DNA of 64,000 bases from Zooshikella harenae (GCF_018837975.1 NZ_JAGSOY010000008.1:17164-81163), one strand, 5' to 3'; positions 28,464 to 45,777 are shown, counted from the first letter of the stretch. The notes: generated by a model not told the origin, from the letters alone. A program made the numbers and translations.

Positions 28464-28470
28464 CTTATTG

Positions 28471-28503
28471 GGTGAAAGTGATTCATTCACTTTCACCTTT
28501 TCT
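28471..28503 (+). terminator. Rho-independent terminator after rpoD (GGTGAAAGTGA-TTCAT-TCACTTTCACC + TTTTCTCC)
   Basis: Perfect 11-bp stem, 5-nt loop and T-rich tail read directly from the sequence. Confidence 0.7.
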
Positions 28504-28630
28504 CCCCCTCCCTTTCACAAAATATCTCCATTCTCTATTTTTAATTCAGATAAACACCTCTTACCAGTTGCATTTGACATAATATGTCATTTTTGCCATT
28601 ATGCATATATCATTGCATCGCGGAGGTAAT

Positions 28631-29038
28631 ATGCACATTCAAGATCTTGCTCTGCGCTTTAATAATATACGTCAACATGAAGGCTATGAGTTTGACTGTC
28701 AGCCAATACCTGGTTGCCCAGACGTACTCCAAATAACTGCAACCAATTTAGATCCATTACCCATTTTTGTAACCATCACAGAGCAGCAAATCCTCTGCAT
28801 TGCCTACTTATGGACAGAGGAGCAAATACTTGAGGAACATCGCTTATCATTATTAGAAGCACTGTTAGAACTCAATGTACCCATGCCTCTTTCATCATTT
28901 TCTAAAACTGCTGATAAATATTTAATTTTTGGTGCATTATCAATCCACTCCTCTTTTGATGACATTATTCATGAAATAATCACATTACATGAAAATGCAC
29001 TAGAAGCGACCAAAGCACTACAACCGTTCTTAAAGTAG
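28631..29038 (+). CDS. YjfI-like (DUF2170) protein
   Basis: About 135 aa; ATG at 28631 preceded by GCGGAGG; a PspA-family gene immediately downstream reproduces the E. coli yjfI-yjfJ pairing; family call from memory. Confidence 0.45.
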   Translation: MHIQDLALRFNNIRQHEGYEFDCQPIPGCPDVLQITATNLDPLPIFVTITEQQILCIAYLWTEEQILEEHRLSLLEALLELNVPMPLSSFSKTADKYLIFGALSIHSSFDDIIHEIITLHENALEATKALQPFLK

Positions 29039-29056
29039 GTTTCAGGAGTAATTACT

Positions 29057-29749
29057 ATGAATGTCATGCAAAAATTACTTACCGCCTTACGTAGCAGTGC
29101 CCGTGAGCTTGGTGATGCTATTATTGATGCTAACAGTACGCGCATCTTTGAACAGGAAATGTCAGAGGCAGAGCATCACCTTCAAGAAGCTAAGCAAGAA
29201 CTGACTTCACTACTTGCCAAACAGCTACACTCTGAAGATGAGCTGAAAAAAATTCAGCTTGAAATTAAAAAACATGAAAATTATGTAAAAGAAGCATTAA
29301 ATAACAAAAATGAATCACTCGCATTAGAAATTGCAGAAAAAATTGCAAGCCTTGAAAATGAACATGCTCAAGTAAAACAAACGGTTATTGACTACCAAAG
29401 CAATACCAAACAGTTAAAAACGTTAATCCAAAAAACAGAACGACAGTTGCGTGATTATCAACGCCAACTGGCTATGGTAAAAACAACTGAAAAAGTACAA
29501 CAAACAACATCGACTATTTCCGCTAATTTTTCAGCAAGCAACTCAAAATTGGTAACAGCAAAAGAAACTCTTGACCGTATAGCTAAACAACAAGAGGAAG
29601 AAAAATACAAACAACAAGCTGCAGATCAGCTTGCCGAAGAATCAGAAGATCAGCAACTGGAAAAAAAGTTAACTGCAGCGGGAATCATTAAAAACAACCG
29701 AGCAGAAGACATTTTAGCGAAAATAAAACAAAGTCAACAAAATGACTAA
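29057..29749 (+). CDS. PspA/IM30 (phage-shock protein A / ESCRT-III-like) family protein
   Basis: 230 aa, predicted all-helical coiled coil, with a PspA-like N-terminus (MNVMQKLLTALRSSARELGDAIIDANSTRIFEQEM...); AGGAG at -8. Confidence 0.7.
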   Translation: MNVMQKLLTALRSSARELGDAIIDANSTRIFEQEMSEAEHHLQEAKQELTSLLAKQLHSEDELKKIQLEIKKHENYVKEALNNKNESLALEIAEKIASLENEHAQVKQTVIDYQSNTKQLKTLIQKTERQLRDYQRQLAMVKTTEKVQQTTSTISANFSASNSKLVTAKETLDRIAKQQEEEKYKQQAADQLAEESEDQQLEKKLTAAGIIKNNRAEDILAKIKQSQQND

Positions 29750-29794
29750 TTTTAGTTATTTAACTTTACATTAACTTAATAATTGTAACTGGAT

Positions 29795-30145
29795 ATGGCT
29801 AAAAAAAAGGCTATATTGCCTGAAAAGTGGCAACAGGAAAAAAAAGCACTTAAAGCAGTCCAAGTCGCATTTGACTTAGGTGAAGAAATTCATTTATCTA
29901 TTCGCCGAGAGGCAGTAGATAAGCACTTAAATCCTTCAGATCTTATCAGAGAGATTCTTGGACTGCCTATTAACAAAAAGCCTCAACGGCCACGCTTATC
30001 TATCTCATTGTCACCCGATGACTTTACTTTTCTTGCTGAAAAGTTTGATCTGGCACCAGATGATAAAGTACAGATTAAACATAAAGCAGCCGAAGCACTA
30101 GTTGAATATGCTTTAGGTAAACCCCAACAACGGACAGATGAATAA
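29795..30145 (+). CDS. Small hypothetical protein with two ribbon-helix-helix-like segments
   Basis: VQVAFDLGEEIHLSIRREAVDKHLNPSDLIREIL and PRLSISLSPDDFTFLAEKF each fit a beta-strand/helix RHH pattern; its stop overlaps the next ATG (TAATG). Confidence 0.4.
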   Translation: MAKKKAILPEKWQQEKKALKAVQVAFDLGEEIHLSIRREAVDKHLNPSDLIREILGLPINKKPQRPRLSISLSPDDFTFLAEKFDLAPDDKVQIKHKAAEALVEYALGKPQQRTDE

Positions 30146-30774
30146 TGGTAGCGTTTCTTAACATCATTACTTCTTTTCCAACTATCGTATACTCTGTACT
30201 GTTAGCTTTTGTTTTAGCTTATTGGCTACTATCCTTAATTGGCTTACTTGATATTGATATCCTGGACTTAGACCTTGATATTGATGGTGATGTTGAGTTT
30301 ACAGGATTGACAGGATCAATCAGTGGTCTATTAATTTCTTGTGGGCTTACAGGTGTGCCTTTAACAATTGTCGTAAGCTTGCTAGTTATATTTAGCTGGA
30401 TTTTTACCTACTTTACAGACTTCTTTCTATTACAATTACTTGAACCAAACTGGATTCGCAGCCTTCTAGGACTTGCTTCTATTATTGCTAGCTTCCTCAT
30501 TTCTGTACCTATTACAGCGCGCCTCATTCAACCTCTAAAGCCTTTATTTCAAACGCATGACAGTCGATTAGGCTCCATTGTAGGCACCACCTGCATCGTC
30601 ACTAGCAGTAAAGTGAATGAGCATTTTGGTCGCGCAGAAATAAAAAAAGACCATGATGCGATTATCATTTATATTCGATCAAACGAACCAAACACGATTC
30701 GTAAGGGAGATAATGTGCTTATCATTGACTGTGACGCAGAAAAAAATATATATAAAGTTGCTAGCATTGATTAA
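30145..30774 (+). CDS. YqiJ/NfeD-like inner-membrane protein (N-terminal TM helices plus C-terminal OB-like beta domain)
   Basis: 209 aa (the same length as E. coli YqiJ); about 4 hydrophobic helices, then a soluble tail (GSIVGTTCIVTSSKVNEHFGRAEIK...GDNVLIIDCD); a flotillin gene follows. Confidence 0.55.
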   Translation: MVAFLNIITSFPTIVYSVLLAFVLAYWLLSLIGLLDIDILDLDLDIDGDVEFTGLTGSISGLLISCGLTGVPLTIVVSLLVIFSWIFTYFTDFFLLQLLEPNWIRSLLGLASIIASFLISVPITARLIQPLKPLFQTHDSRLGSIVGTTCIVTSSKVNEHFGRAEIKKDHDAIIIYIRSNEPNTIRKGDNVLIIDCDAEKNIYKVASID

Positions 30775-31063
30775 AAGTCAGACCTAGTCTTATATTCGCT
30801 ACGTGTAGGCATTTCCTATGCTGACCCCAAGAGATATACCCAAACCTATAGAAATAGGTATTAAACTGATGACTATTACAAAGTAAACTTTGCCAACGAA
30901 TTGCAAAAATATGAGCAAATTATTTCAAGTAATATCCTTTGTTAATAAATTATTTTAGACACTTTATAATTAACTATGGCTAAACGTGACGAGTAAACCA
31001 TAAAAAAGGTGTGTGATAAGTATAATTCCAGCACTTAAACGAATTCATCCCAAGGAGTATTTT

Positions 31064-32938
31064 ATGCACGGTGAAGGCGATATATTGTCTAGCTTAATGC
31101 CTTTTATTGTAGGCATAGGCATTACATTATTTATAATTTTTGTATTTGTCCTTTTAATCAATAAATTTTATGTCAAAGTCGATCAAGGCAAAGCGCTTAT
31201 CGTTAATACTTTAAAAAAAGACCCCATTGTAAGTTTTACCGGCAAATTAGTGCTACCCGTTATCCATAAAAAAGAAATTATGGATATTTCTCAAAAAAAG
31301 ATTGAGATTAATCGAAAAGGTAAAGAAGGACTGATTTGTAAAGACAATATTCGTGCTGATATTGATGTTGCCTTTTTCGTACGTATAAATAAGACTGCCG
31401 AAGATGTATTACAGGTTGCATCCCGCATTGGGTGTGAGCGCGCTTCCACTAGAGAAACTCTGGAAGAATTATTCACCGCAAAGTTTTCTGAAGCGTTAAA
31501 AACTGTAGGTAAGCAGCTGGATTTTGAAGATCTATACCGTGAGCGAGCTTTGTTCCGAGACAAAATACAGGAGCAAATTGATGCCAGCTCAAATGATCTG
31601 GATGGTTATAAACTAACTGATGTTGCCATTGACTATCTAGAGCAAACACCAATAAGTTTACTAGATAACGATAATATTCTAGATGCCCAAGGTATTCGCA
31701 AAATAACAGAACTCACTGCCGCTCAAAATGTTAATACCAATAACTTAAAGCGCGAAGAAGAACTTCAAATCAAAAAGAAAAATGTCGAATCACGGGAAAT
31801 GATTCTGGAATTTGAGCGCCAGGAAGCTGATGCCGAGGCCCGACAACAGCGTGAAATTGCCAATATTCAATCGCGAGAAACAGCTGAGTCCGACCGCGTT
31901 GCCACAGAAGAAAACCTCAAAGCAGAGCAAGCTAGAATCCAAGCCGATCAAGAGATTGAGGTGCTTCAACAAAATAAACACCGTGAAATTGAAGTTGCAG
32001 AAAAGAATCGTGAGCGTGCTGTTGCTATTGAAACAGAAAAAGTTGAGCGTGTTCGTCAACTAGAAATTATTGCCAGAGAAAAAGAAGTTGAATTACAACG
32101 CATTGCTAAAGAAAAAGCGTTAGAAGAAGAACGTAAAGCGATCGCAGATGTAACTCGTGAGCGAGTAGCCGTTGACCGAACAGTGGCTGAAGAAGAAGAA
32201 AACATCAAAAGAGTACGTGTACTGTCTGAAGCCGAGCGGGCCAAAGACGTACGTGTTATGGAAGCTGAAGCTGAAGCTAAAGTCTTGCAAGAAAAAATGC
32301 GTGCTGAAGCCTTGGGCATTGAACAAAAAGGCTTGGCTGAAGCCAAAGCTTCTGCAGAAAAAATGCAATCTGAAGCGCAAGGTAAAGAACAACTGGGTAT
32401 GGCAGAAGTCCGTATCAAAGAAGCTGATGCAATCAGTCAAGAAAAACAAGCACTGGTTGATATCAAAGTCAAAATTGCTGAAGCTGAAGCAATTGAAAAA
32501 CAAGGACTTGCTGAAGCAGCAGCGATCAAAGAGAAATTCAAAGCAGAAGCCGATGGCTTACGTGAAAAATTTGCTGCAATGGGTGAAATCAGCGATGTGG
32601 CAAGAGAGCATGAAGAATTCCGCATGAAGCTAGATACTAAACATGTTGAAAACATGTCCTCAATTGCCGCTAATAAAGACATTGCCCACGAGCAAGCCAA
32701 AGTACTAGCAGAAGCTTTAAAACAAGCCAATATCGATATTGTAAGTGGAGATGGGCAGTACTTTGATCGGTTTGCCAGTGCCCTTTCGGTAGGAAAAGCT
32801 ATTGATGGTGCTGTTGATAAGTCAGTAACGTTGCAATCCATTGCTACCATGCTCAGTCAATTTATGGGCAAATCTAATAATGGAGAAGCATCAGTGAATA
32901 CCATAGATCAAGTTTCCTCTAAAGAAGAAAAAGCTTGA
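31064..32938 (+). CDS. Flotillin-like SPFH/band-7 protein (YqiK-like) with a long Glu/Ala/Lys-rich coiled-coil tail
   Basis: N-terminal TM segment then SPFH core (KALIVNTLKKDPIVSFTGKLVLPVIHKKEIMDISQKKIEI...DIDVAFFVRI); EA-repeat coiled coil; ATG at 31064 has AAGGAG at -9 (the track starts at an upstream GTG). Confidence 0.8.
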   Translation: MHGEGDILSSLMPFIVGIGITLFIIFVFVLLINKFYVKVDQGKALIVNTLKKDPIVSFTGKLVLPVIHKKEIMDISQKKIEINRKGKEGLICKDNIRADIDVAFFVRINKTAEDVLQVASRIGCERASTRETLEELFTAKFSEALKTVGKQLDFEDLYRERALFRDKIQEQIDASSNDLDGYKLTDVAIDYLEQTPISLLDNDNILDAQGIRKITELTAAQNVNTNNLKREEELQIKKKNVESREMILEFERQEADAEARQQREIANIQSRETAESDRVATEENLKAEQARIQADQEIEVLQQNKHREIEVAEKNRERAVAIETEKVERVRQLEIIAREKEVELQRIAKEKALEEERKAIADVTRERVAVDRTVAEEEENIKRVRVLSEAERAKDVRVMEAEAEAKVLQEKMRAEALGIEQKGLAEAKASAEKMQSEAQGKEQLGMAEVRIKEADAISQEKQALVDIKVKIAEAEAIEKQGLAEAAAIKEKFKAEADGLREKFAAMGEISDVAREHEEFRMKLDTKHVENMSSIAANKDIAHEQAKVLAEALKQANIDIVSGDGQYFDRFASALSVGKAIDGAVDKSVTLQSIATMLSQFMGKSNNGEASVNTIDQVSSKEEKA

Positions 32939-32942
32939 TGAC

Positions 32943-32968
32943 TATATACCCATAGTAAAGGGTATATA
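32943..32968 (+). other. Perfect 9-bp hairpin (TATATACCC-N8-GGGTATATA) just after the flotillin stop; no T-run
   Basis: Read directly; may be an RNA processing or stability element rather than an intrinsic terminator. Confidence 0.3.
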
Positions 32969-33275
32969 AACTAAAAAAACATAAAGATGCTTAAACCAAT
33001 GCTGGCTGTATTGCAGTCAGCATTAACGTCTTCGTGTACTACAGGCTCAGGAAAGTAATGGTTCAAGATGAAGCTGGACACATACCAAAGACTCCATCGC
33101 TACGAAGACAAAAATTAATGAGTTCAACCATTCCTCAAATTAACAGATTACCAAACTCAGCTAACGATCATTACCCTACATCACTTTTGTACAACAAAAA
33201 TGACCTTTTTATTTCTACTGCAAAGCGGTATTAAATTGATGATTTCTTTAGCTGTTTCAGTAAGAGGTTGTAACC

Positions 33276-36200
33276 GTGTCTAATAATACAGAACAAGTAT
33301 TGGAACAAGCTGTCCATCAAGAGGGAACTTACGAAGTTTTAAGGAAACGCCTCCAACAGCAGGCATCAGCCTTAAATGAAAAAATCGCTCAGCTAAATGA
33401 ACAACGCATTACAGCCTTTGGTAAAACAGAAACCTCAATTATTAACCGTGTTCGAGCTAGAACAGAAAATAATTGTGTTGCACGCGATATTGTCAGAATA
33501 GGCAATCAGCTGCTGTTTGGTTTTAATGTTTTCATGGGGCTAAAGAAAGAGCACTCTATTAATGATGTTTTTGCGCTTTACCAGCTTTCAGAAGAAAGCT
33601 CAAATGAATTACAAATTACGCCTATCGAACTCAAAACCAGCTTTCTTAATGAACAAAAGTTTCTAGATGACTTTAAAGAGCTTTACACTTATTACAAACA
33701 TGCCAAATTAATTCAACTTCGGGTCACCAATAATAAACTCCTTGCCGCATTCCAAATCGGTCAAAAAGTAGGTGACATTCGTGTCTTTCGCTGGTCACTA
33801 GACAATGCTATTCCCAGCTATATTGATAATCGTGGAGAACGCGATATCACCCTACCAGCAACCCATGACTTCGAGTGGATTCCCACATCAAGAGACAATC
33901 ATGTACTAGGTGAACATCCACATATCAATATACTCGATAAGGTGTTTATTGAGACGATTAATGGCGACCTCACCATTAAGATTGAAAATAATACGACTGA
34001 TGGTCAAGGCATTTATAGTGAACCAGTGGACGATTTACACCAATCACTTGATGATGCAGAAGTCTACTATGCTGACCTTATTGATCTGATTTTGCTCAAA
34101 GTAAAACCTTACCGCGAAGAATCTTACCGTTACTTAATTTTTAATACACTGCTCAATACAGTCACGCGCATCGATGAATTAGGTTCATCGTGTCAACAGT
34201 TGCCCGAAAATCACGGAATAATTTATCCTGGAGGTTACTACCTCACAACAGGTGAACACAAAACATTTTCAACCATTAATACCAAAAATTTAGTCTATAA
34301 ACGAACAATCAAGTCTCCCAATGGGGAAGATATACTTTATGTATATTATGAACCCATTGCAGGACGTTTTGTATTATGTGCATATAACCTCATTACCAAA
34401 ACTTTAAATAATCCTATCGAAGGCCATGGTTATGCATTGTACCCTGATGGGAAAATGATCATTTTCTCTGATAGTGGTGAAGAACCAACACATATTCACC
34501 CTATGCAAATCTGGCAAACACCTTTCGTCAGTGACGAATTTGCTAGCGCCCAGGAAACAGCTACTGGTTTATTCGCAACATTAGGTAATGCAGAACTTGT
34601 CCGGGCAATTTCGGACTTATACAGCATTAGTAAAGCAATTTTACAGTTACAGCCAAGCACTCAAGTTTATACATCTCTTATCAACCAGTGTAATACATTA
34701 TTTGATAGTTATTATTGGTTGGATCAACGTGAAGCCGGTGAGTTAGCACCCTTTGTTAAAGAAATTGTCAAAAATGCTGAGTTAGTACTTGATGAATTCG
34801 AAAAAGTTCAACATTTACAAAGTCGTGCAGAAGCCGCATTAAAAAAAGCTGGACAACAACAGAAAGAATTATTAAGTGGACTAACTCCTGAACGCTGGGA
34901 TAACCCAGAACAATTTGTTAACGCACTAAACAGCTTTAAAAAACAGAAAGGTCATCTTCTTACCTTACAAGACACACGCTATATTAATGAAGAACACTTA
35001 GCTGAGCTTAACAAAAAAGTTGATGAAACGATTGATAAAATCAGCCAAGCAACAATCGCTTTTATTAGTAAAGATGAGTCGCTTACCCCCTACCAGCAAA
35101 GACTTGAAACATTTGAAGACGCTATTACAAGCGCAGAGGACTCAAAGTCACTCAAAGTAATTCAAGATGATATTGAACAAACAGCAGAAGGCCTTGATTT
35201 ACTTACGACGATTCTTTCTACACTCGATGTCGAAGACGCTCCAGAGAGAACGCTCATTCTCGAAAAAGTTGCAGAGATATATGCACAAATAAACCAAGTA
35301 AAAGCCAAGTCTCGAAATAAACTAAAGTCAATTAAAGCAACAGAGTCTATTGCTGAGTTTGGGGCCCAATTTAAGCTATTCTCACTCAGTATTACTAATG
35401 CCGTCAGTGTCTGTGATACCCCAGAGCGCTGTGATGAAGAGCTCACTAAGCTAACCGTTCAACTTGAAGAAATTGAAAGCCAATTTGCAGATAATGAGCA
35501 ATATCTTGGCGAAATTCTCAATAAACGTGAAGAGTTATATGACACGTTCCAAAATCTCAAGCAAACACTGCTTGATGAAAGGCAACGCCGAGCACAGCAT
35601 CTATATGAATCAGCAATACGTGTATTAAAAAGCATCGAACGACGTAGCCAAAGCTTTTCCAGCGTTGATGACCTTAATACCTATTTTGCGTCAGATGCTA
35701 TGGTACTGAAAATTCAATCGTTTTCAGACCAGCTTATTACACTGTCAGAAAGCGTTAAAGCTGACGATATTCAATCCCACTTAAAAGGTATAAAAGACCA
35801 GGCTATCAAGTCACTGCGGGATAAATCAGAAATATACTCTGATCAAGGTAAAACATTAAAGCTTGGCAAACACTTATTTAATGTCAATACTCAACAACTA
35901 GATACCAGTTTAATACATAAAGATAATCAGCTTTATATACATTTAAGTGGCACAAATTTCTACCAACTTATAGATAATGAAGAGCTAGCAAATTTAAACG
36001 ATTATTGGAAACAAACGATTTTATCGGAAAATCAATATGTTTACCGTGCAGAATACTTAGCGTATCAAATCATAAAAACAGCCGAAAACCAACAACAAGG
36101 CTGGTCAATAGCAAAACTTCAAGAACTCAAATATGATAATGAACAGCTAATTAAAGCTATTCGTGAATATATGACACCTCGTTATCAAGAAGGTTACCAA

Positions 36201-38642
36201 AAAGGTATTCACGACCATGATTGCGCTAAAATACTAACTGCTTACTTAACATCTCTGGAAACGCAGGGTTTACTAAAATATTCAGGCCTGTCAAGGTGTT
36301 GTGCTGCGTATTTTTGGATATCAGTCCAAGGTAACTCATCTCAGGTAAATGTGCTATCAGGTAAAGCACAAGGCGCCTTTTTACTTGCGAATCAAATGGG
36401 TGAAAGCAAAGCATTAAATGCTCTTACTCATGAGTTGGAAGATTATCTAAAAGCATTTTATCATGAGAAATCACCCAGTTTAGTTATAGACTTTACCAGT
36501 ACTGCTAAGTATTTAATCGAAGTGCTAGCAGTATCTCCCACCCAGTTTATGGTTAGTGTACAGGGGCAGCAATTAGCAGAACAATTTGAGAAAACCCTTC
36601 ACAACTTAAATTATTACAACATATTCGAAAAAACGCTAAGGGAATTAAGCGATAATTTTCAATCACAATGGGAGTTACTGCAACATTGGCTAAGCGCACT
36701 ATCAAAAGAGATACCTGAGAATATACTTAATACTGTTATTGCTGATGCAGTTACTGTCATTTTAACAAATAAAAAACTTTCCCTTAAAGCACTTTCACTT
36801 CCAGAAAGTAATAGCATTCCAGGTCTGTTAGGAGATCATCCTCGAATCCAACAAAGTGAATTAACCTTCTCTCTAGCTGAATTCAATAATCGTTTGCAGC
36901 ACTTTACCCATACTGACACTGTTAACTTTGAAAAACTAGTCAGCATCAAGCAAAAGTTACTTGAAAAAGAACGCAAACGACTACGTCTTGACGACTTCAC
37001 TCCAAAACCTCTAACATCTTTTGTCCGAAACAAACTAATCAATGATGTATACTTTAAAATCATTGGTGACAACCTTGCAAAACAAATGGGAGCTGCAGGT
37101 AACCAGAAACGCTCAGATTTAATGGGCTTATTATTGCTTATTTCACCACCTGGTTATGGTAAAACAACATTAATGGAGTATATCGCCAACCGACTGGGCC
37201 TCGTCTTTGTCAAAGTAAACTGCCCCTCGCTAGGTCATCAAGTCATCTCTCTTGACCCAGAAGAAGCTCCTAATGCAACAGCAAGACAAGAACTTATTAA
37301 ATTAAATTTAAGTTTTGAAATGGGCAATAATGTCATGTTGTATTTGGATGATATACAACACACGCACCCTGAGTTTTTACAAAAGTTTATTTCTTTGTGT
37401 GATGGTACGCGACGCGTGGAAGGTGTTTGGGATGGAGAAACCAAAACTTATGACTTAAGAGGTAAAAAGTTTTGCATTGCAATGGCAGGAAACCCTTATA
37501 CTGAATCAGGCGAAGTTTTCAAGATTCCTGACATGTTAGCTAACCGGGCCGATATTTATAATCTTGGGGATATACTCAGTGGTTCAGAAGAAACGTTTGA
37601 GTTGAGTTACATTGAAAACAGCTTAACCTCTAATTCTGTATTGGCACCATTAGCAACTCGCAACTTAGCTGATGTTTACCATCTGATTAATATGGCTAAA
37701 GGCAAACAGTCGACAAATGGACAATTAGAATACGACTATTCAAGTGCAGAGCTTGAAGAAATATTAAGCGTTATACGAAAGCTTCTCTATATTCAAGAAT
37801 TTGTCCTTAAGGTTAATCAAGCTTACATAAAATCTGCTGCTACAGCAGATGCCTACCGGACCGAACCTCCTTTTAAACTACAAGGAAGTTACCGGAATAT
37901 GAATAAAATGGCTGAAAAAGTGGTTGCCATTATGAATGATGAGGAGCTAAACAACCTGATACTTGACCACTATGTAGGAGAAGCTCAAACATTAACTTTT
38001 GGGGCAGAAGAAAACCTGCTTAAACTTAAAGAGATAATGCAATTTTTGACTGAAGAAGAGTCTGTTCGTTGGCAAAAGATCAAAGATGAGTTTAGTAAAC
38101 GGATTGCACTAGGCGGAGATGAGCAGGATACACTAGCCAAAATAGCTTATCAAATTGCTAGCTTAAATCAAGGTTTAACTGGTATCGAAAAAAGCTTAAG
38201 TCATTCAACATCAACACAAACCTGGTCAGAGCATCTTACTCATTTTCAGCAAACAGTACGCCAGACACTTGGACAGCAACAAAAGCAATCTCTTGCCGCC
38301 AGTAAAATGCTTCAGCATCAATTGGGTAATATCAATAATGCAATGGCAATGATTGGAGAAAACCTGGTAGAAAGTAGTCATGGTTTACAACACATTACGG
38401 CGTTAAGTGAAGCCTGCCAGCAAATCCAGAAAAGCCTTGAAACTATCGACTTTTCTATCAATGTTGTTAACCAGCCAAGTCCAGTATTAGAACAATCACT
38501 GAGCGCACTTGCAAATACCGTAGAGTCATCGCTAATGCCTGTAGTTACGACTATGAATCATAAAATAGGGCTGGATCAAAATATATTGCGTAAAGTTAAT
38601 GAACTCTCAGATCAACTTAAAGCTATTTCGGATCGTCAATAA
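33276..38642 (+). CDS. Giant (1788 aa) multidomain protein: N-terminal beta-rich region, about 750 aa of coiled coil, and a C-proximal AAA+ ATPase of MoxR/dynein (AAA_5)-like type
   Basis: Single uninterrupted ORF; GTG start with AAGAGG at -8; Walker A LLISPPGYGKTTL at about aa 1290; Walker B VMLYLDDIQH; sensor-1 FCIAMAGNPY; ARADIYNLGD; no family recognised. Confidence 0.7.
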   Translation: MSNNTEQVLEQAVHQEGTYEVLRKRLQQQASALNEKIAQLNEQRITAFGKTETSIINRVRARTENNCVARDIVRIGNQLLFGFNVFMGLKKEHSINDVFALYQLSEESSNELQITPIELKTSFLNEQKFLDDFKELYTYYKHAKLIQLRVTNNKLLAAFQIGQKVGDIRVFRWSLDNAIPSYIDNRGERDITLPATHDFEWIPTSRDNHVLGEHPHINILDKVFIETINGDLTIKIENNTTDGQGIYSEPVDDLHQSLDDAEVYYADLIDLILLKVKPYREESYRYLIFNTLLNTVTRIDELGSSCQQLPENHGIIYPGGYYLTTGEHKTFSTINTKNLVYKRTIKSPNGEDILYVYYEPIAGRFVLCAYNLITKTLNNPIEGHGYALYPDGKMIIFSDSGEEPTHIHPMQIWQTPFVSDEFASAQETATGLFATLGNAELVRAISDLYSISKAILQLQPSTQVYTSLINQCNTLFDSYYWLDQREAGELAPFVKEIVKNAELVLDEFEKVQHLQSRAEAALKKAGQQQKELLSGLTPERWDNPEQFVNALNSFKKQKGHLLTLQDTRYINEEHLAELNKKVDETIDKISQATIAFISKDESLTPYQQRLETFEDAITSAEDSKSLKVIQDDIEQTAEGLDLLTTILSTLDVEDAPERTLILEKVAEIYAQINQVKAKSRNKLKSIKATESIAEFGAQFKLFSLSITNAVSVCDTPERCDEELTKLTVQLEEIESQFADNEQYLGEILNKREELYDTFQNLKQTLLDERQRRAQHLYESAIRVLKSIERRSQSFSSVDDLNTYFASDAMVLKIQSFSDQLITLSESVKADDIQSHLKGIKDQAIKSLRDKSEIYSDQGKTLKLGKHLFNVNTQQLDTSLIHKDNQLYIHLSGTNFYQLIDNEELANLNDYWKQTILSENQYVYRAEYLAYQIIKTAENQQQGWSIAKLQELKYDNEQLIKAIREYMTPRYQEGYQKGIHDHDCAKILTAYLTSLETQGLLKYSGLSRCCAAYFWISVQGNSSQVNVLSGKAQGAFLLANQMGESKALNALTHELEDYLKAFYHEKSPSLVIDFTSTAKYLIEVLAVSPTQFMVSVQGQQLAEQFEKTLHNLNYYNIFEKTLRELSDNFQSQWELLQHWLSALSKEIPENILNTVIADAVTVILTNKKLSLKALSLPESNSIPGLLGDHPRIQQSELTFSLAEFNNRLQHFTHTDTVNFEKLVSIKQKLLEKERKRLRLDDFTPKPLTSFVRNKLINDVYFKIIGDNLAKQMGAAGNQKRSDLMGLLLLISPPGYGKTTLMEYIANRLGLVFVKVNCPSLGHQVISLDPEEAPNATARQELIKLNLSFEMGNNVMLYLDDIQHTHPEFLQKFISLCDGTRRVEGVWDGETKTYDLRGKKFCIAMAGNPYTESGEVFKIPDMLANRADIYNLGDILSGSEETFELSYIENSLTSNSVLAPLATRNLADVYHLINMAKGKQSTNGQLEYDYSSAELEEILSVIRKLLYIQEFVLKVNQAYIKSAATADAYRTEPPFKLQGSYRNMNKMAEKVVAIMNDEELNNLILDHYVGEAQTLTFGAEENLLKLKEIMQFLTEEESVRWQKIKDEFSKRIALGGDEQDTLAKIAYQIASLNQGLTGIEKSLSHSTSTQTWSEHLTHFQQTVRQTLGQQQKQSLAASKMLQHQLGNINNAMAMIGENLVESSHGLQHITALSEACQQIQKSLETIDFSINVVNQPSPVLEQSLSALANTVESSLMPVVTTMNHKIGLDQNILRKVNELSDQLKAISDRQ

Positions 38643-38657
38643 AATATATTTTTCACT

Positions 38658-39239
38658 ATGATTAATTCAAAGATTACTAATATTTCCCGCTGGAAGTGTG
38701 TAATAGGTTTACTAGGTTTCATGTGGATACTACACATGGTAAACCTACTACTCGGCTATCAGCTCAATCAATTTGGGTTAGTGCCTCGTACCACAAGTCA
38801 TTTTACTGCAATATTTTATTGGAGCTTTTTGCATGGTAGTCTTGACCACTTACTTACCAATAGCATCCCTTTCACAATTTTAGGACTATTGGTAGCTGTA
38901 CGCGGGAGCTACTACTTCTTTTTAACAACTCTGTTTATTAGTATTACATCTGGTATCGTCGTATGGCTGTTTGGTAGAACAGCCATACACATTGGAGCCA
39001 GTGTATTAATTTATGGCTATTTTGGCTTTCTAATAAGTCGAGCTTGGTTTGACCGGCAACCTCTCTCACTTATCATTGCTCTTATTGTCGTTATCACCTA
39101 TAGCGGCTTAATTTTTGGGCTATTTCCAAGCACACAACAGATCTCATGGGAAGGCCATTTAGCAGGATTAATAAGTGGCAGCCTCATGGCATGGCTTTTG
39201 TGTAAACAAAAACCTACTAAAAAGCAATTACAGGAGTAA
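38658..39239 (+). CDS. Rhomboid-family intramembrane serine protease-like protein
   Basis: 193 aa, six hydrophobic helices; candidate catalytic Ser in HIGASVLIYGYFG and His in WEGHLAGLISG; starts 16 nt after the giant gene. Confidence 0.55.
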   Translation: MINSKITNISRWKCVIGLLGFMWILHMVNLLLGYQLNQFGLVPRTTSHFTAIFYWSFLHGSLDHLLTNSIPFTILGLLVAVRGSYYFFLTTLFISITSGIVVWLFGRTAIHIGASVLIYGYFGFLISRAWFDRQPLSLIIALIVVITYSGLIFGLFPSTQQISWEGHLAGLISGSLMAWLLCKQKPTKKQLQE

Positions 39240-39244
39240 TAACT

Positions 39245-39487
39245 ATGAGTACAACAACACACGACTACATCAAGCTGGCAACCTACGCAGTAAACATTTT
39301 TGCGAGTGATGGTAAGCTAAATGCACACGAGTTTGACCAATTAATGACTATTGCTCTTCGCGATGGTGTTGTTGATGACGATGAAAAAAGAGTGTTAACA
39401 AACATTCTCAATAAAGTAAGAGCAGAAGAAATGACGGATGACTTACAAGCGAAAATTACCCAAGTTAGAGAAAAGTATAATTTCTAA
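39245..39487 (+). CDS. Small TerB-like (tellurite-resistance TerB / DjlA N-domain-like) protein
   Basis: 80 aa; IFASDGKLNAHEFDQLMTIALRDGVVDDDEKRVL matches the ADG-x-L...E...L TerB pattern; AGGAG at -9; starts 6 nt after the rhomboid gene. Confidence 0.45.
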   Translation: MSTTTHDYIKLATYAVNIFASDGKLNAHEFDQLMTIALRDGVVDDDEKRVLTNILNKVRAEEMTDDLQAKITQVREKYNF

Positions 39488-39587: not shown

Positions 39588-39643
39588 TTCACTATGAGAT
39601 GAATTTTGTTACTCTAAAATTTACCTGCATTCAGTGAGTGATC

Positions 39644-40339
39644 ATGACAATATTACAAGAACAACAAATTATCGAGTCTTGGTATAAAAACGCTAAATCA
39701 TGGACTGATGCTATTAAAAATAAACAAATTGCAAGTAGAGAACATACTACTAATCAGGCCGTTATTGATGCTATTCTCACCTATTCACCTAAGACTGTTC
39801 TCGACATTGGCTGTGGTGAAGGTTGGTTAACACGAACTTTAACAAGCCATAACATCAATACTTATGGCATTGATACAGTACCAGAACTCATTGCTTATGC
39901 TCAACATCAGGGACAGGGAAAATTCAGCTTGATGTCATATGATAATATTAATCCTAATACAATTCAGGATAAATTTGATATTGCTGTGTGCAATTTTTCA
40001 CTCTTTGGTAAACACTCAGTTAATAATCTGATAAAGAAAATACCCCGCCTATTGAATGATAAAGGGTATTTTATTTTACAAACACTTCACCCACTTATTG
40101 AGCACAACAATAGAGTGTATCAAGATGGCTGGAGGGAAGGATCTTGGTGTAGTTGTGGTAACAGCTTTTCTGATCCGGCTCCATGGTACTTTCGCACGCT
40201 TGCCTCATGGGTCGACCTTTTAGCTGATTGTCATTTTTTAGTAACAAGTATCAAAGAGCCAAAACCTCAGGACACCCCTCATCCATTATCTATCATATTT
40301 ATATGTCAAAAAACTGAGATTGACCACCATACTTCATAA
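39644..40339 (+). CDS. Class I SAM-dependent methyltransferase
   Basis: Motif I VLDIGCGEGWLT; the post-I acidic residue and motif II (DIAVCNF) are present; the ORF track starts at GTG 39638. Confidence 0.7.
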   Translation: MTILQEQQIIESWYKNAKSWTDAIKNKQIASREHTTNQAVIDAILTYSPKTVLDIGCGEGWLTRTLTSHNINTYGIDTVPELIAYAQHQGQGKFSLMSYDNINPNTIQDKFDIAVCNFSLFGKHSVNNLIKKIPRLLNDKGYFILQTLHPLIEHNNRVYQDGWREGSWCSCGNSFSDPAPWYFRTLASWVDLLADCHFLVTSIKEPKPQDTPHPLSIIFICQKTEIDHHTS

Positions 40340-40353: not shown

Positions 40354-41508
40354 CTACTTTTCTACATCTTGCATAATATGAAATATGTGTTTTTTTAGAT
40401 CCAGCAACTTTTCCGCTTCCAAAATACAAAGCCCCATTAACCTTGCACGTTCTTTATTATGTACATTAAAGTTTCCAAATGATGCGATGACGCCACAAGC
40501 ATTTTTACCACCTAATCGATGTAATAATGCTTCCATTTTATATATTGTATTAATTCCACTCTTTCTTTGAGCCAAAAAATTCCTAGCTTTACACTCAATA
40601 ATAAATAACTGATTATTTGCTAAAAATACAACATCTAACTCATTTCTAACGGTACTATTTCCATAGTCCCAGACAACTTCAACTCCTCTGGCAACATCTT
40701 GAATATACTCACTTTCTCTCGCTATTTTATCTAACTCAGAAAAAACATATTCCTCTAACCAAAAACCATTACAGAATGCCCTATCCTCTTCACTAGAAAA
40801 AATTAAACGCTTTTTCTCTAACGTAACCAAGTGGTAGAACTCCAAAGAACCCACAAGCTCTTGAAGCTGAGCATTATAATACTCCTGGCTGGATAGCCGC
40901 CTAGAACATAACTTTAGGTTATTCGCTGTTGAGGCTAAATGATTTAGTAGTGCCAACCCTTTGGTCAAGTGCCTAGCACGTTTAACCCATCGTTTACCTA
41001 AACGTTGAGCTTCTTGGGAAATCTTACTCGTTTGCTGGTGCGTAACTGCAACGCCCTGTAGCTGAAAATAGCGCTCAATTGAGAGATGATCTTCTAGGTT
41101 TATAACCCCTTTATTTGCAGGGTTATTTAGCCAAACAACTACATCACTTGTTTGATTGACCTGAAAAATACCCAAATTTTCCTGTTTAAAAACCTCATAA
41201 GCTGCAATCGCTAAAACTTTATTTCCTCCTGAAATATTTAGCTCATAGTCAACTTTATCTGGATACTGCAATAACGCACTAATTGTAATTAAAAGATCAT
41301 TGAAGTTCCAAGCATCATCTATAAAAACTGTTTTAGTAGTAATTCCTATTTCTTCTATGAAAGCCGATGCACTATTAACAGCTTGCTGTAAACGTGTTAT
41401 AGCAACAAAAACAACTTCATTTGGTTGCATTCTAGAATCAAGAATAGGGGTCACATTTGCACTTACAGATTCACTAAATAAAATAATTTGTACTCTTTTT
41501 TTAGCCAT
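40354..41508 (-). CDS. Card1/Can2-like protein: N-terminal Rossmann/CARF-like domain plus C-terminal PD-(D/E)xK nuclease (DUF1887-like)
   Basis: C-terminal ELDVVFLANNQLFIIECKARN gives D...(13)...E-x-K; the N-terminal half is predicted alpha/beta with an ISGGNK loop; about 384 aa, matching Card1/Can2 size; the first ATG is the fifth codon after the track's TTG start. Confidence 0.55.
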   Translation of the reverse strand: MAKKRVQIILFSESVSANVTPILDSRMQPNEVVFVAITRLQQAVNSASAFIEEIGITTKTVFIDDAWNFNDLLITISALLQYPDKVDYELNISGGNKVLAIAAYEVFKQENLGIFQVNQTSDVVVWLNNPANKGVINLEDHLSIERYFQLQGVAVTHQQTSKISQEAQRLGKRWVKRARHLTKGLALLNHLASTANNLKLCSRRLSSQEYYNAQLQELVGSLEFYHLVTLEKKRLIFSSEEDRAFCNGFWLEEYVFSELDKIARESEYIQDVARGVEVVWDYGNSTVRNELDVVFLANNQLFIIECKARNFLAQRKSGINTIYKMEALLHRLGGKNACGVIASFGNFNVHNKERARLMGLCILEAEKLLDLKKHIFHIMQDVEK

Positions 41509-41736
41509 CACAGTACTCGTCAAGTAAGCGAAAGTCTTATCTTTTCATTGCTAAATGTAAAATACCATACGCACTGTAACTTTTTGCAAAACATGACCAA
41601 TAAAATAATTAGAACAACTCAAGCATTACACTTAAAAAGTGAATCAGAAACGGGGTACTGAATAGACATCAGATAACACAATGATCGTATCTGATACAGA
41701 CTCATACAATCTTATTCAAAAGGATAAATCATGAAA

Positions 41737-42684: not shown

Positions 42685-43365
42685 TTACCCTATCACGTTC
42701 AATTTATTGTGCCAGTAAAACGTGTTTACTGGACTATCGTTAGTAGTCAATAATGTTTTCCAACAACAATAAATGTCCAAAATGCTATTTACAGTAAACT
42801 CTTTTTTCCAAAACTGTCGACCATAAAGAAAACTCAAGGCAAATTCGCGCCAACTTAAAAAACAAGAAAAAGCTAAATCAGCAGCTTCGAATATACATTC
42901 CCAAGCTTTTTCTTCACTGATATAACCCACGAAGGCCCCTCGCCTAAACAGATGAATACATGTAGCAATATCCCATGCTTTAATTCCCATATGAGTTAAT
43001 TCTGGAAGACTACGTTTTACAAACTGGAGAACCTGGTACTCTTCTTGCTCCTGTTTATAGGTATCAATATACGATAATTGCCTTTTACTATCGATTGTAT
43101 TCAAAAACCTTGCTCTTGCACTAAAGGCAGCATTATACCCCCCCTGCTCAATTAACCAGTTTTTTAATTCAATGAGAGAGCTTCCACAAGTTACTTTCCA
43201 ATCTCTTTGCAACTGGGTTCGCCAATGGTTTTTATATTCTTCACTATCATCACAGCCAAATAATGTTTGGTTAGCGTCTTCCAGAAGAACATCATGAAGA
43301 CAGGCCAGTCCGATAGCCCTCATCTGTTGAGATGTGTGTTGAGGGGGGTAATTAAACTTCATCAT
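42685..43365 (-). CDS. DUF1266 (YbeU-like) protein
   Basis: 226 aa; last gene of an hscC/djlC/ybeU-like trio that mirrors the E. coli ybeU-djlC-hscC locus; family call from memory. Confidence 0.55.
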   Translation of the reverse strand: MMKFNYPPQHTSQQMRAIGLACLHDVLLEDANQTLFGCDDSEEYKNHWRTQLQRDWKVTCGSSLIELKNWLIEQGGYNAAFSARARFLNTIDSKRQLSYIDTYKQEQEEYQVLQFVKRSLPELTHMGIKAWDIATCIHLFRRGAFVGYISEEKAWECIFEAADLAFSCFLSWREFALSFLYGRQFWKKEFTVNSILDIYCCWKTLLTTNDSPVNTFYWHNKLNVIG

Positions 43366-43378
43366 CTAGTTTTTGACC

Positions 43379-45751
43379 TTATGGACAAATATTTAAGCTA
43401 CTTGGCTCTTCATCAGAAACTAAGGCAAAATCAGCCCAATTAATTACATCCAAAAGTGAATATATATTAATGAATATTTTTTGATACTCTTTTTCATCAA
43501 CACACATCGTGTTTTGCATATTTGTTGATTCAGACGCCAGTACAATCCAATGATTAATCAATAAAAGCCATTGTTCATAGTCTTCACTAAACACATTAAG
43601 TAGTCTTTTTGCTTTAACCCAATGACGCATTGCAGCAACAAAATTTTGCATACCAAATTCAGCCAATCCTAATAAAACTTGACTAGCTGCAGATTGCTCT
43701 TCTTTTACAGTCATCGCCCCAGTTGCTTTACTGGGATTACATTCCCAAATATACAGTAAGCTTGAAAAAAAACTGTGAATACTTACAGCTAAAACTGGGG
43801 GAAAGTGACCATTAGACTCAATACTTTTTAATAAATCAAAGGCAGAAGAATATTGTTTTTGCAAAAATAGAATAATAAGTTTATGCCAAAGCCACCAAGT
43901 ACTCACTGATGCAGCCTTATCAAAAACCTCAAATAAATCAACTAGTTGATCAATTTTTTTATAGGTTATACATAAATAAATACATCGTCGAACCAGACTT
44001 TGACATGTAAATACTTCCCAAGCTTGTACAGCATAATCTAGAGCATCTTTTGTGCGATTCAGGCCAAAGCTTGCTTCAGTTAATATCCATAAAAGCCGTA
44101 GTGAAAATCTCACACGATATAAATCATTTTTATTAATATAATTCACTACCTTTTGATATTCATTTAAGGCTAATAAGCAAGCAGCAATCTCCACTTTTGC
44201 ATTGATATTTGCATTATCTATGTGAACACATTTACGGAAACTGGTTAACGCCTGCTGGTAATTTTTTACTAGATAGTAACATTGTCCTAATCGAAACCAA
44301 TCATTCGCGGATATATCAAGCTGTGTTAATACTGATTGGTAATCCTTAATCGCATCACTGTAATTTGCCAATTCAAAATTACAGCGAGCACGACATGATA
44401 AGTAAATATGATTATCATCATTGATATCAATATTAATCAAATTCAGTGCATGCAGGTAATAACCCAACTCTAAATAACAGACCACTAGTTCTTTTTTAGC
44501 TTCAGTACATACCTCCTCACACTGCTGTATGTACGTAATATAATGTTTAGCATCAGCATGTCTGTTTAAGTTTGTACAAACTTTAATTTTGAATAAAATA
44601 CTCCATACAGCAAGCCGATAATCCTGTATTGCAGGCAACTGATTTAAAGTAGTTAGTGCTTCATTCGCTTTTCCTAAAGCTAAGGATACCTTTACCTTAA
44701 GTAAGGCAGTTACAACTTTAAGCACATGACTCTCAAACTCTTGAAAATCAATTTCAGCAAGTAATATTAGCATTCTCTCATTAATAGGTGCCTCAAGCAG
44801 CCTCACTAACGCACTTTCGATTTCATCAGAAGGTATTTGGTTTGAGTTTAAAAGTGATGTATAAAGCCCATGGATGGCCTCATGATTCTGAGGATCAATA
44901 TTAAAAATCAAAGTGTAAATATTTAAAGACTGGCTCCAGTTTTTTTGTTTTACTTCTATTGTTGCAATTCTTAATAAGAAATCAAGATCATTATCTAACT
45001 GATAACCAGCATAAAAACAGTCTTTAGCTCGTTCCAACAAATTAGCTAGCTCAAATGAACACCCTAGCAATCTCAGGAGCACAGGATCTGCATCATAGAT
45101 TGCGTATGCAGACATCAAATGCTCAATTGCAGACCTAATATCATTACAGATTAAAGCATGACGCCCTTCAAGTCTCCGTTGTAAATACTCATCAGCATTG
45201 ACTGATGGTAGCCCTTGCAGTCCATCATAAGTTAAAAATCCAGGGCCATCTTTAAAACTTCCAAAAAAACGATCAACTAAGCTTTCAGGATACTGGCGAT
45301 AAAAAATCCACTGATTAGCTATCCAGTCAAAGTGACAACTTAAGCGTTTTAAAATAGTTGGGGGAACAAAAGGGTGATCTAAAAAAAACCGTAATAATTG
45401 TACAGAAAGCTCTTCTTTCGCTTCTTTGTTCAGACCATTTATACTTAATAACCAGTTATCCCAAACAATACTCTGTACTCTTTGTGAAAAGTCAGAATAA
45501 ATCATCTCAACAGCGTACAGTGCTTGTTCTACACCAGTCATCCCTACGTTATGCTGATGAAGCCGGTAACCATCAACATCTAACTTATTATGCTTAGCGC
45601 TTAACAGAGCTTGCTCATAAGCCTCTCTTAAACCCTGAAATGCGGACACATCATCTAAATGACCAAGTGCTTTTAGCTGCTTAGCATAAGCTTTCTTAAT
45701 TGCCTGCACATCACTTGTAGGCTTAATCCTTAATTGTTCCCAACAGTCCAT
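43379..45751 (-). CDS. DjlC-like co-chaperone: N-terminal J-like domain (HLD in place of HPD) plus a long TPR-repeat region
   Basis: MDCWEQLRIKPTSDVQAIKKAYAKQLKALGHLDD aligns to a J-domain helix II-loop with HPD replaced by HLD; many TPR-like repeats follow; the track starts at GTG 45760. Confidence 0.6.
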   Translation of the reverse strand: MDCWEQLRIKPTSDVQAIKKAYAKQLKALGHLDDVSAFQGLREAYEQALLSAKHNKLDVDGYRLHQHNVGMTGVEQALYAVEMIYSDFSQRVQSIVWDNWLLSINGLNKEAKEELSVQLLRFFLDHPFVPPTILKRLSCHFDWIANQWIFYRQYPESLVDRFFGSFKDGPGFLTYDGLQGLPSVNADEYLQRRLEGRHALICNDIRSAIEHLMSAYAIYDADPVLLRLLGCSFELANLLERAKDCFYAGYQLDNDLDFLLRIATIEVKQKNWSQSLNIYTLIFNIDPQNHEAIHGLYTSLLNSNQIPSDEIESALVRLLEAPINERMLILLAEIDFQEFESHVLKVVTALLKVKVSLALGKANEALTTLNQLPAIQDYRLAVWSILFKIKVCTNLNRHADAKHYITYIQQCEEVCTEAKKELVVCYLELGYYLHALNLINIDINDDNHIYLSCRARCNFELANYSDAIKDYQSVLTQLDISANDWFRLGQCYYLVKNYQQALTSFRKCVHIDNANINAKVEIAACLLALNEYQKVVNYINKNDLYRVRFSLRLLWILTEASFGLNRTKDALDYAVQAWEVFTCQSLVRRCIYLCITYKKIDQLVDLFEVFDKAASVSTWWLWHKLIILFLQKQYSSAFDLLKSIESNGHFPPVLAVSIHSFFSSLLYIWECNPSKATGAMTVKEEQSAASQVLLGLAEFGMQNFVAAMRHWVKAKRLLNVFSEDYEQWLLLINHWIVLASESTNMQNTMCVDEKEYQKIFINIYSLLDVINWADFALVSDEEPSSLNICP

Positions 45752-45777
45752 AGCGATCACTTTTAGTTAACTTAAAA

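Follow-up and report, generated by a model that had tools for sequence, protein, structure and literature searches.

A modular cluster of PspA, flotillin and AAA+ ATPase genes downstream of rpoD in Zooshikella harenae

The 64,000-nt stretch of the Zooshikella harenae genome analysed here, referred to as the window, carries eight plus strand open reading frames (ORFs) that span positions 28631-39487 and follow the rpoD terminator. They encode, in order, a short YjfI (DUF2170) protein, a PspA/IM30 protein, a small protein resembling ribbon-helix-helix (RHH) regulators, a YqiJ-like short NfeD protein, a YqiK-like flotillin, a giant AAA+ ATPase, a rhomboid protease and a small TerB-like protein. 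An initial annotation had described these genes as an island and as a single functional unit for membrane-damage sensing and repair or for scaffolding. The cluster is a modular mosaic of three modules, not a fixed eight-gene unit, and it probably represents, in Zooshikella, a modular type of envelope-stress cluster that is already known and widespread, organised around YjfJ-type PspA and working in the way proposed below.

Gene content of the cluster

The genes upstream of the cluster are yqeY, dnaG and rpoD. The rpoD gene ends at 28463 and is followed on the plus strand by a hairpin (28470-28498) that has a 12-bp stem and a trailing UUUUCU, a folding energy (dG) of -18.2 kcal/mol and a z-score of -6.06, none of 200 shuffled sequences folding equally well. 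The same inverted repeat was recovered by blastn. The hairpin and its U-rich tail form a convincing rpoD terminator and the upstream boundary of the cluster, and the ORFs and the hairpin fold agree with the initial description of eight plus strand genes lying right after it. The labels first given to the YjfI, PspA, flotillin, giant and rhomboid proteins were firmly borne out by the matches described in this section, and that of the NfeD protein is supported by profile comparison.

The first gene (28631-29038), with a GGAGG sequence 4 nt before its ATG, encodes a 135-residue short-form YjfI/DUF2170 protein of the CesT/Tir-like chaperone fold (Pfam PF09938, 2.8e-32) that also matched PDB entry 8q8o, a 'DUF2170 family protein' representing the BacA structure (2.5e-8). 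Compared with the NCBIfam equivalog model for BacA (NF050185, 206 residues), it scored 62 bits against a cut-off of 300 and aligned only with model residues 91-203, the N-terminal extension of the model being absent from the window protein. The second gene (29057-29749), on the same strand after a spacing of 18 nt, encodes a 230-residue PspA/IM30 protein of the YjfJ type (Pfam PF04012, 3.1e-31) that was 31% identical to E. coli YjfJ across its full length (BLASTP, 3e-24).

The product of the third gene (29795-30145) is a 116-residue protein with two strand-helix-helix segments, a putative tandem RHH DNA-binding regulator. It belongs to an uncharacterised family of which 130 homologues were found, none of them named. 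No Pfam family matched at threshold (FitA-like_RHH reached only 0.2) and the PDB match to AvtR was only 0.85. The extended-helix-helix pattern occurs twice in the AlphaFold model (pLDDT 75), a GLNPSD turn is present, and the first unit could be aligned in register with CopG (hhalign P = 0.009) and Arc (P = 0.059), both weak matches. A Foldseek search with the model gave nothing below 0.18 and no significant fold match. The two RHH-like segments reported in the initial annotation are thus plausible and agree with the predicted secondary structure, but the fold is statistically not established, the CopG and Arc matches being weak and Foldseek negative.

The stop codon of the third gene overlaps the start of the fourth (30145-30774) in the sequence TAATG. 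The fourth gene encodes a YqiJ-like (short NfeD) membrane protein whose N-terminal part has transmembrane helices and whose C-terminal domain is OB-like; it had no Pfam match, but its family profile matched E. coli YqiJ by hhalign with a probability of 92% (E = 5.9e-7). The fifth gene (31064-32938), which most plausibly starts at the ATG at 31064 behind an AAGGAG Shine-Dalgarno sequence, encodes a 624-residue YqiK-like flotillin composed of an N-terminal membrane segment, an SPFH domain and a long coiled coil rich in Glu, Ala and Lys. No Pfam model matched this protein, including Band_7, but it was 28% identical to E. coli YqiK over 487 residues from residue 6 onwards (BLASTP, 8e-37) and matched the NCBIfam FloT model at 1e-5.

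The giant ATPase (33276-38642) has 1788 residues and comprises DUF3686 (residues 33-480, Pfam 2e-191), which Ravi et al. 2024 (PMC11237479) describe as a beta-propeller, then DUF7902, a long middle part that is helical, and a single AAA+ module at about 1280-1420 that matched Pfam AAA and AAA_5. The Walker A and Walker B sequences are GYGKTT and LYLDDIQ, respectively, and in 20 aligned orthologues GYGKTT, LYLDDIQH, MAGNPY (sensor 1) and MLANRAD (box VII arginine) were invariant. The protein was 100% identical to an NCBI entry from Zooshikella harenae, a gammaproteobacterium, which identifies the origin of the window, and 44-59% identical to orthologues residing in operons of this kind. A model of the AAA part (pLDDT 69) resembled Skd3/ClpB, MoxR-type NorQ/CbbQ, ClpA and RuvB with TM-scores of 0.2-0.3, and sequence matches to solved structures were marginal (Rix7/NVL, 0.005-0.009). 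Assignment of the module to a clade was attempted and rejected, the model being too weak and the matches too mixed. More than 4400 homologues were found, carrying the NCBI name 'DNA repair ATPase', which follows the Pfam description; no nucleic-acid-binding, nuclease or protease domain was found by Pfam, nor was an MIT domain, and neither the domain content nor the genomic context supports a DNA function. A literature search on DUF3686 found no paper.

The remaining two genes are closely spaced, with a gap of 15 nt between the giant and rhomboid genes and of 5 nt between the rhomboid and TerB-like genes; the initial annotation had given the TAATG overlap correctly, the two gaps as 16 and 6 nt, and had omitted two long gaps, a 289-nt one that separates nfeD from the flotillin gene and a 337-nt one that separates the latter from the giant gene. 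The rhomboid gene (38658-39239) encodes an intramembrane serine protease of 193 residues (Pfam PF01694, 1.5e-22; 80.8 bits against a cut-off of 22.6) with a GxSx catalytic serine, a catalytic histidine and an HxxxxHxxxN motif. His59, His64, Asn68, Gly113-x-Ser115 and His167 were invariant in 11 operon-linked members, and the intact catalytic residues predict an active protease.

The last gene (39245-39487) encodes an 80-residue protein with two DG...D/E motifs. Its match to Pfam TerB (PF05099; 0.0058, 17.3 bits) fell below the gathering score of 24.4, as did that of the best family member at 23.8 bits. TerB was the commonest match in the family, found weakly with six of ten members, and weak EF-hand-like matches were also obtained. 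The motifs F..DG.L...E and RDG..D..E.RVL were invariant in the family, and no PDB sequence match to TerB was found. The resemblance to TerB is a lead that draws on the paired DG...E motifs and the recurrent weak matches and falls short of the Pfam threshold.

Linkage and modularity in related genomes

When 20 giant homologues were aligned and the alignment was used for a pattern scan, 80 loci were obtained (designated by L numbers where individual loci are mentioned); they come from Gamma-, Beta- and Zetaproteobacteria and from Myxococcota, among other lineages. Genes in these loci were counted by searches with the window proteins and by iterated hidden Markov models (HMMs); the counts are lower bounds, as some contigs were cut. 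A flotillin gene was present in 76 of the 80 loci and an NfeD gene in 73, in each of the 73 directly before the flotillin gene. YjfI and PspA were each found in 40, the RHH-like gene in 13, the rhomboid in 10-11 and the TerB-like gene in nine, and rpoD lay within 10 kb in one. The core genes kept the same order and the same strand, a recurrence far beyond chance, and the order YjfI-PspA-NfeD-flotillin-ATPase was seen in 40 loci in Gamma-, Beta- and Deltaproteobacteria-type genomes. The prevailing layouts were NfeD-flotillin-giant alone (29 loci), YjfI-PspA-NfeD-flotillin-giant (14 loci) and the latter plus the RHH-like gene (nine loci). The complete eight-gene order was found elsewhere only in a Zooshikella relative with about 88-89% protein identity, in which the PspA-to-TerB genes are all present, and seven of the eight genes occurred in the same order in L091.

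The accessory genes were more variable. The rhomboid gene followed the giant gene in ten loci, often with a 4-nt overlap of the giant stop codon, and the same rhomboid family ends a spermine-synthase-type YjfI-PspA-RHH operon that has neither a flotillin nor a giant gene. The position of the TerB-like gene changed from the flotillin-giant gap in Pseudomonas-type loci to a place after the giant gene elsewhere, and in L089 it followed a canonical YqiJ-YqiK pair without a giant gene. Other accessories were a PLD-family gene after the giant gene (ten loci), a Zn-ribbon protein gene, often in the flotillin-giant gap (nine loci), and a recurrent coiled-coil protein in Xanthomonadales loci. In L088 (10001-14479) the giant and TerB-like genes were followed by genes for two unknown proteins, a trypsin-like serine protease, which occupies the place of the window's rhomboid, and a Zn-ribbon protein.

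A functional link between the genes of the cluster is supported by this conserved linkage, by the palindrome found before nfeD-flotillin-ATPase genes in two genomes (see below) and by the co-transcription of the P. aeruginosa counterpart (PMC10948618). The single functional unit proposed initially is tenable to that extent, but not as one fixed set of eight genes, because the modules are also found apart. The co-occurrence profile that had been suggested as a check, when run on the 80 loci, returned the same picture of a linked core within a three-module mosaic.

In the sister genus Spartinivicinus the gene order is rpsU-yqeY-dnaG-rpoD-YjfI-PspA-RHH-NfeD-flotillin-giant, with no rhomboid, TerB-like, methyltransferase or Card1-like gene after the giant gene; these four are additions specific to Zooshikella. 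Because Spartinivicinus carries it at the same place, the six-gene core is old at the rpoD site, and on this comparison the cluster is not a recent island. The G+C content of the cluster is 0.36-0.40 compared with a window ORF mean of 0.41 (range 0.35-0.47), and the same mild dip is seen in Spartinivicinus. There is no tRNA gene in the window, and no integrase-type Pfam match was seen among the neighbouring genes scanned. The term island is consequently doubtful, and the comparison suggested in the initial annotation, whether the block is inserted at the 3' end of rpoD relative to related genomes, argued against a recent insertion.

A predicted operator and the number of transcripts

The top-scoring promoter-like site of the region is a sigma-70-type sequence on the plus strand (28574-28602) consisting of TTGACA, a 17-nt spacer and CATTAT, with a TG upstream of the -10 hexamer; it has 10 of 12 matches plus the TG and is a consensus match only. 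No match to a sigma-54 -24/-12 motif was found in 28464-28630 when up to two mismatches were allowed. The -35 hexamer is overlapped by a perfect 15-bp palindrome, TGACATAATATGTCA (28575-28589), with the core GACAT-N3-ATGTC, which we interpret as the RHH-like protein's operator. The 13-bp core lies upstream of the short-form yjfI gene in all 19 RHH-bearing loci examined, 17 of them with an exact copy and often with two to four copies, and in none of 28 loci with a long-form YjfI. By our own calculation about two exact matches were expected in the approximately 2 Mb searched, as against 23 found, and 22 of these lay directly upstream of short-form yjfI operons or beside nfeD.

The sites beside nfeD are two of the four in L079, a locus in which yjfI and nfeD diverge. 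In L050 (Pseudoalteromonas ardens) an exact palindrome, TTGACATAATATGTC, was located at 6782-6796, about 300 nt upstream of nfeD-flotillin-giant, with no YjfI-PspA-RHH genes within 10 kb, and therefore control in trans is suggested. The positions of the palindromes, including those near nfeD in L079 and L050, suggest that the YjfI-PspA-RHH and NfeD-flotillin-giant modules may belong to one regulon. A second copy of the palindrome was not found inside the window's cluster. Further palindromes precede DUF350/spermine-synthase genes located ahead of YjfI-PspA-RHH in L092 (3338) and L093 (4359).

The distribution of the palindrome parallels that of two forms of YjfI, a short form of approximately 135-170 residues by our own ORF calls, to which the window and E. 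coli proteins belong, and a long, BacA-type form of approximately 205-225 residues. The long form, found in 28 loci (for example L007 5403-6032 and L002 5659-6294), carries an N-terminal extension, basic and conserved, of about 45 residues, KSSAHYQRxYRxRLREQGLVKKEVWILPE, that had no Pfam match and whose occurrence coincides exactly with the absence of both the palindrome and a separate RHH-like gene. The RHH-like gene was present in 12 of 12 short-form loci and in none of the 28 long-form loci (Fisher 2e-10, uncorrected for phylogeny), and it also accompanies YjfI-PspA alone in Oceanimonas and in spermine-synthase-type operons. Homology between the extension and the RHH-like protein was considered and rejected, none being detected by hhalign or Pfam. 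The association of the RHH-like gene with short YjfI and the conserved palindrome are new observations.

Only the 3' approximately 90 nt of the nfeD-flotillin spacer (30775-31063) are highly conserved, as judged by alignment with L086, a relative with about 88-89% protein identity. This part carries a perfect TATAAT (31021-31026), and an internal promoter before the flotillin gene is therefore possible. The flotillin-giant spacer (32939-33275) begins with an AU-rich 9-bp hairpin directly after the flotillin stop codon (32943-32968, z = -3.6) that has no trailing U run and is missing from L083, a locus with a clean 30-nt indel at this place and a giant protein 89% identical to that of the window. 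The spacer also contains a non-conserved ORF of 58-66 codons (33034/33058-33234) that was rejected as a gene; in L083 the ATG is lost and indels break the frame, and the ORF had neither a Pfam match nor a homologue among the 80 loci. Six-frame HMM searches gave no match that would make the spacers remnants of Zn-ribbon, TerB, RHH or rhomboid genes, and repeats, mobile elements or known RNAs were likewise rejected, since there were no repeats in the window and Rfam returned sub-threshold noise only. No terminator-like site was found in either spacer by folding and motif scan. At the same two positions the spacers in Spartinivicinus are 39 and 80 nt. With its two gaps of approximately 300 nt, the cluster may be read as more than one transcript in this genome.

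Proposed function, alternatives and the downstream genes

The cluster itself is not a discovery, its core having been described both by Ravi et al. 2024 (PMC11237479) and in the work on the P. aeruginosa biofilm-associated cluster (BAC). Ravi et al. defined an operon class in which CesT/Tir-PspA is combined with a band-7/flotillin protein, a beta-propeller AAA+ protein and YqiJ/YuaF, some genomes adding a PLD hydrolase. All four defining components are present in the window, co-linear and in the same association, as a DUF2170-yjfJ-type pspA pair, a flotillin, a YqiJ-type neighbour and a large AAA+ protein. The fusion of the yjfIJ and yqiJK modules with a giant ATPase, correctly recognised in the initial annotation, is thus not new, since Ravi et al. 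describe the operon type and BAC is a subtype of it. The optional extra in their class is the PLD hydrolase, whereas the extras in the window are the rhomboid, TerB-like and RHH-like genes; the word rhomboid has no occurrence in their main text, and an RHH factor is named only for the spermine-synthase operon type (PMC11237479).

The P. aeruginosa cluster, bacABCDEF (PA3732-PA3727; PMC2587700, PMC10948618), is co-transcribed from bacA to bacF as determined by reverse transcription PCR (RT-PCR) (PMC10948618). Mutation of bacA raises BacB-F 6- to 13-fold, osmotic shock induces PA3731, and bac mutants are impaired in biofilm formation, swarming, rhamnolipid production and virulence (PMC2587700, PMC10948618). 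A 2026 paper identified PA14_16160 as a short NfeD and PA14_16180 as an SPFH protein, and PA3728 has been catalogued as an ATPase. In Pseudomonas-type loci, the published RT-PCR primers have their sites in the NfeD, flotillin and giant genes. The amplicon that runs from the flotillin to the next gene has its reverse primer on the conserved TENNCIA motif of the giant, so that BacE corresponds to the giant ATPase; for the identity of BacF the primer mapping was uninformative. In both clusters the genes for DUF2170/YjfI, a PspA-like protein, a short NfeD, an SPFH/flotillin protein and the giant ATPase follow one another in this order, and related Pseudomonas genomes carry TerB-like and rhomboid genes as well. 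The two clusters differ in that the 135-residue YjfI of the window lacks the approximately 45-residue N-terminal extension of BacA and missed the equivalog cut-off, that the window has an RHH-like gene and a palindrome, neither of which is found in long-form loci, and that a sigma-70-like site is present where no sigma-54 promoter of the P. aeruginosa kind was found.

Four of the genes have E. coli YjfI, YjfJ, YqiJ and YqiK as their closest named homologues. In E. coli, however, the two pairs, within yjfIJKLMC and yqiJK, do lie at separate loci, as stated in the initial annotation; they are 1.2 Mb apart (4.41 and 3.19 Mb in K-12), with no giant, rhomboid or RHH-like neighbour and no palindrome upstream of yjfI. 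The classical Psp system (pspF, pspABCDE) likewise has a PspA-family effector under negative control by a partner protein, but there are no pspB- or pspC-type genes in the cluster or among its immediate neighbours and no adjacent pspF-type activator, the nearest sigma-54 activator being a GAF-domain protein encoded 8 kb away on the other strand. Nor is there a sigma-54 promoter, and control is predicted to be exerted through the RHH-like protein and YjfI. A polymer of the PspA/ESCRT-III fold combined with an AAA+ ATPase, as in ESCRT-III/Vps4, provides a working analogy for lattice disassembly that was also drawn by Ravi et al. The window encodes such a polymer beside an AAA+ ATPase, but the giant is not demonstrably a member of the Vps4/classical clade, the fold matches being led by Skd3/ClpB and NorQ, and Pfam detected no MIT domain in it. 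A similar combination of an SPFH scaffold, an intramembrane or NfeD-type protease and an AAA+ enzyme is seen in the mitochondrial SPY hub, formed by the SLP2 scaffold, the PARL rhomboid and the YME1L AAA protease (PMC10818064), and in the archaeal stomatin-NfeD protease pair (PMC2636767), NfeD and flotillin being an established pair. This is analogy without orthology, and the giant lacks the protease domain, and the short NfeD of the window the ClpP-like protease domain, of those systems.

The gene content, the homologies, the conserved linkage, the palindrome and the intact catalytic and ATPase motifs are direct observations, and a role in membrane-damage sensing, repair or scaffolding is a reasonable reading of the families involved. 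In the proposed scheme, the first module would consist of YjfI as a CesT-like chaperone or regulator, PspA as a membrane-binding polymer of the ESCRT-III fold and the tandem RHH-like protein; the second of YqiJ, the flotillin YqiK and the DUF3686 AAA+ giant; and the third of the active rhomboid protease and the small TerB-like protein. The RHH-like protein would bind GACATAATATGTC over the -35 hexamer before yjfI and keep expression of the operon low until membrane stress lifts the repression. YjfI would hold or deliver PspA, flotillin and YqiJ would form a membrane-anchored scaffold, and PspA would polymerise on the damaged or remodelled bilayer. The giant ATPase would spend ATP in assembling or dismantling PspA/flotillin lattices, the rhomboid would cleave a membrane anchor within the assembly, and the TerB-like protein might be a small metal-binding adaptor. 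We infer every physical interaction in this scheme, the binding of the palindrome by the RHH-like protein, what the ATPase and the protease act on, and how many transcripts the cluster gives rise to.

Several observations weigh against this scheme. The RHH fold of the 116-residue protein is plausible from the model but statistically not established, and its binding to the palindrome is suggested by their co-occurrence only. The Walker B motif of the giant carries an invariant Asp-Asp, not Asp-Glu, in all 20 aligned orthologues, and its AAA+ module was not placed in a clade; a Vps4-like role is analogy only, because the best matches are a mixture of ClpB/Skd3, MoxR-type and RuvB proteins. The 289- and 337-nt spacers, one with a conserved TATAAT, would allow three separate transcripts. 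Moreover, the modules occur independently, NfeD-flotillin-ATPase on its own in 29 loci, YjfI-PspA-RHH alone in Oceanimonas and the rhomboid in spermine-synthase-type PspA operons, and the counts come from related genomes and are uncorrected for shared ancestry. Finally, a P. aeruginosa mutant in the flotillin paFlo3 loses only about 20% of its biofilm.

The long spacers, the first with a TATAAT conserved in a close relative, the existence of the modules alone elsewhere and the single operator copy in the window's cluster would also be expected if YjfI-PspA-RHH-YqiJ, the flotillin alone and giant-rhomboid-TerB were separate transcription units with separate jobs that happen to lie side by side after rpoD. 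We consider this unlikely: the same order recurs in 40 of the 80 loci over distant lineages, the Spartinivicinus spacers are just 39 and 80 nt, neither spacer in the window holds an intrinsic terminator, and the P. aeruginosa counterpart is co-transcribed (PMC10948618). Such a division would also split the established NfeD-flotillin pair (PMC2636767) at the 289-nt gap, and the operator is found before nfeD-flotillin-giant in L079 and L050. That YjfI-PspA-RHH mainly monitors solute or polyamine status, with the flotillin-ATPase module as an add-on, is very unlikely. The same RHH-like family, operator and rhomboid family do appear in operons that combine YjfI-PspA with DUF350, spermine synthase and Ion_trans_2 genes, a link also made by Ravi et al. 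(PMC11237479), but no polyamine or channel gene lies in or beside the cluster, and the RHH-type module is joined to NfeD-flotillin-giant both here and in 12 other loci.

The labelling of the giant as a DNA-repair ATPase by NCBI and Pfam, the PLD-family genes that follow it in ten loci, the G+C content slightly below that of the neighbours, and the Card1-like CARF nuclease and the methyltransferase with a PADLOC mad2 match directly downstream could instead point to a defence island, in which the giant, together with PLD-type or protease effectors, attacks foreign DNA entering the cell or brings about an abortive infection response linked to the membrane. We regard such an anti-phage or conflict system as highly improbable. 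Pfam found no nucleic-acid-binding or nuclease domain in the giant, its partners are membrane scaffold proteins, and the phenotypes in P. aeruginosa concern osmotic stress, biofilm and swarming. The core is stably located beside rpoD in two genera, in one of which, Spartinivicinus, there is no neighbouring Card1-like or methyltransferase gene, and neither of these genes was found among the 80 loci. A defence system was rejected as a candidate on the PADLOC search, which was negative for the cluster; the eight proteins had no meaningful match, only marginal ones (E = 7e-4 to 2e-3) confined to coiled-coil or P-loop segments.

An envelope-stress cluster built around YjfJ-type PspA is thus the preferred explanation. 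The predicted regulator-operator pair, conserved across Gamma- and Betaproteobacteria, makes a poorly understood family of operons testable, and the existence of two subtypes, one with short YjfI and an RHH-like gene and the other with long BacA-type YjfI, may explain why BacA acts as a negative regulator. The substrates of bacterial rhomboids are mostly unknown, and a rhomboid family tied to PspA/flotillin operons narrows the search for them. A more far-reaching and rather unlikely possibility, which we put forward tentatively, is that short YjfI, PspA, the tandem RHH-like protein and the operator constitute an undescribed, PspF-independent Psp control circuit, that the BacA extension substitutes for the RHH-like protein in long-form systems, and that the circuit governs a membrane-repair hub in which a dedicated rhomboid family cleaves a PspA, flotillin or AAA+ component. 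If so, bacteria would possess a counterpart to the mitochondrial SLP2-PARL-AAA hub, and the rhomboid family would gain a defined physiological context.

The cluster is followed, 150 nt after the TerB-like gene, by an S-adenosylmethionine-dependent methyltransferase gene (39638-40339, plus strand; PADLOC mad2, 5e-16), with no terminator-like site between the two. The methyltransferase is placed outside the system because it is absent from all 80 related loci. On the minus strand, 40354-41523 encodes a Card1-like protein with a CARF domain and a PD-(D/E)xK nuclease domain (Pfam Card1_endonuc, 1.7e-26; PADLOC CARF4--CARF_PDDEXK, 2.8e-100). No CRISPR-Cas or cyclase gene was seen in the annotated parts of the window, and the nuclease looks like an orphan effector responding to cyclic-oligoadenylate signals. 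Genes for a DUF1266 protein, a 793-residue TPR protein and a non-canonical Hsp70 follow in a row (42685-47466, minus strand); at the corresponding place in Spartinivicinus, genes for a DjlB_C protein and an Hsp70 come directly after the giant gene (L082, 15463-17948). Beyond them (47970-52302, minus strand), a sigma-54 enhancer-binding protein with a GAF domain is encoded beside a ClpV/ClpB-like double AAA+ ATPase, a pair that is probably the start of another system, perhaps type VI secretion.

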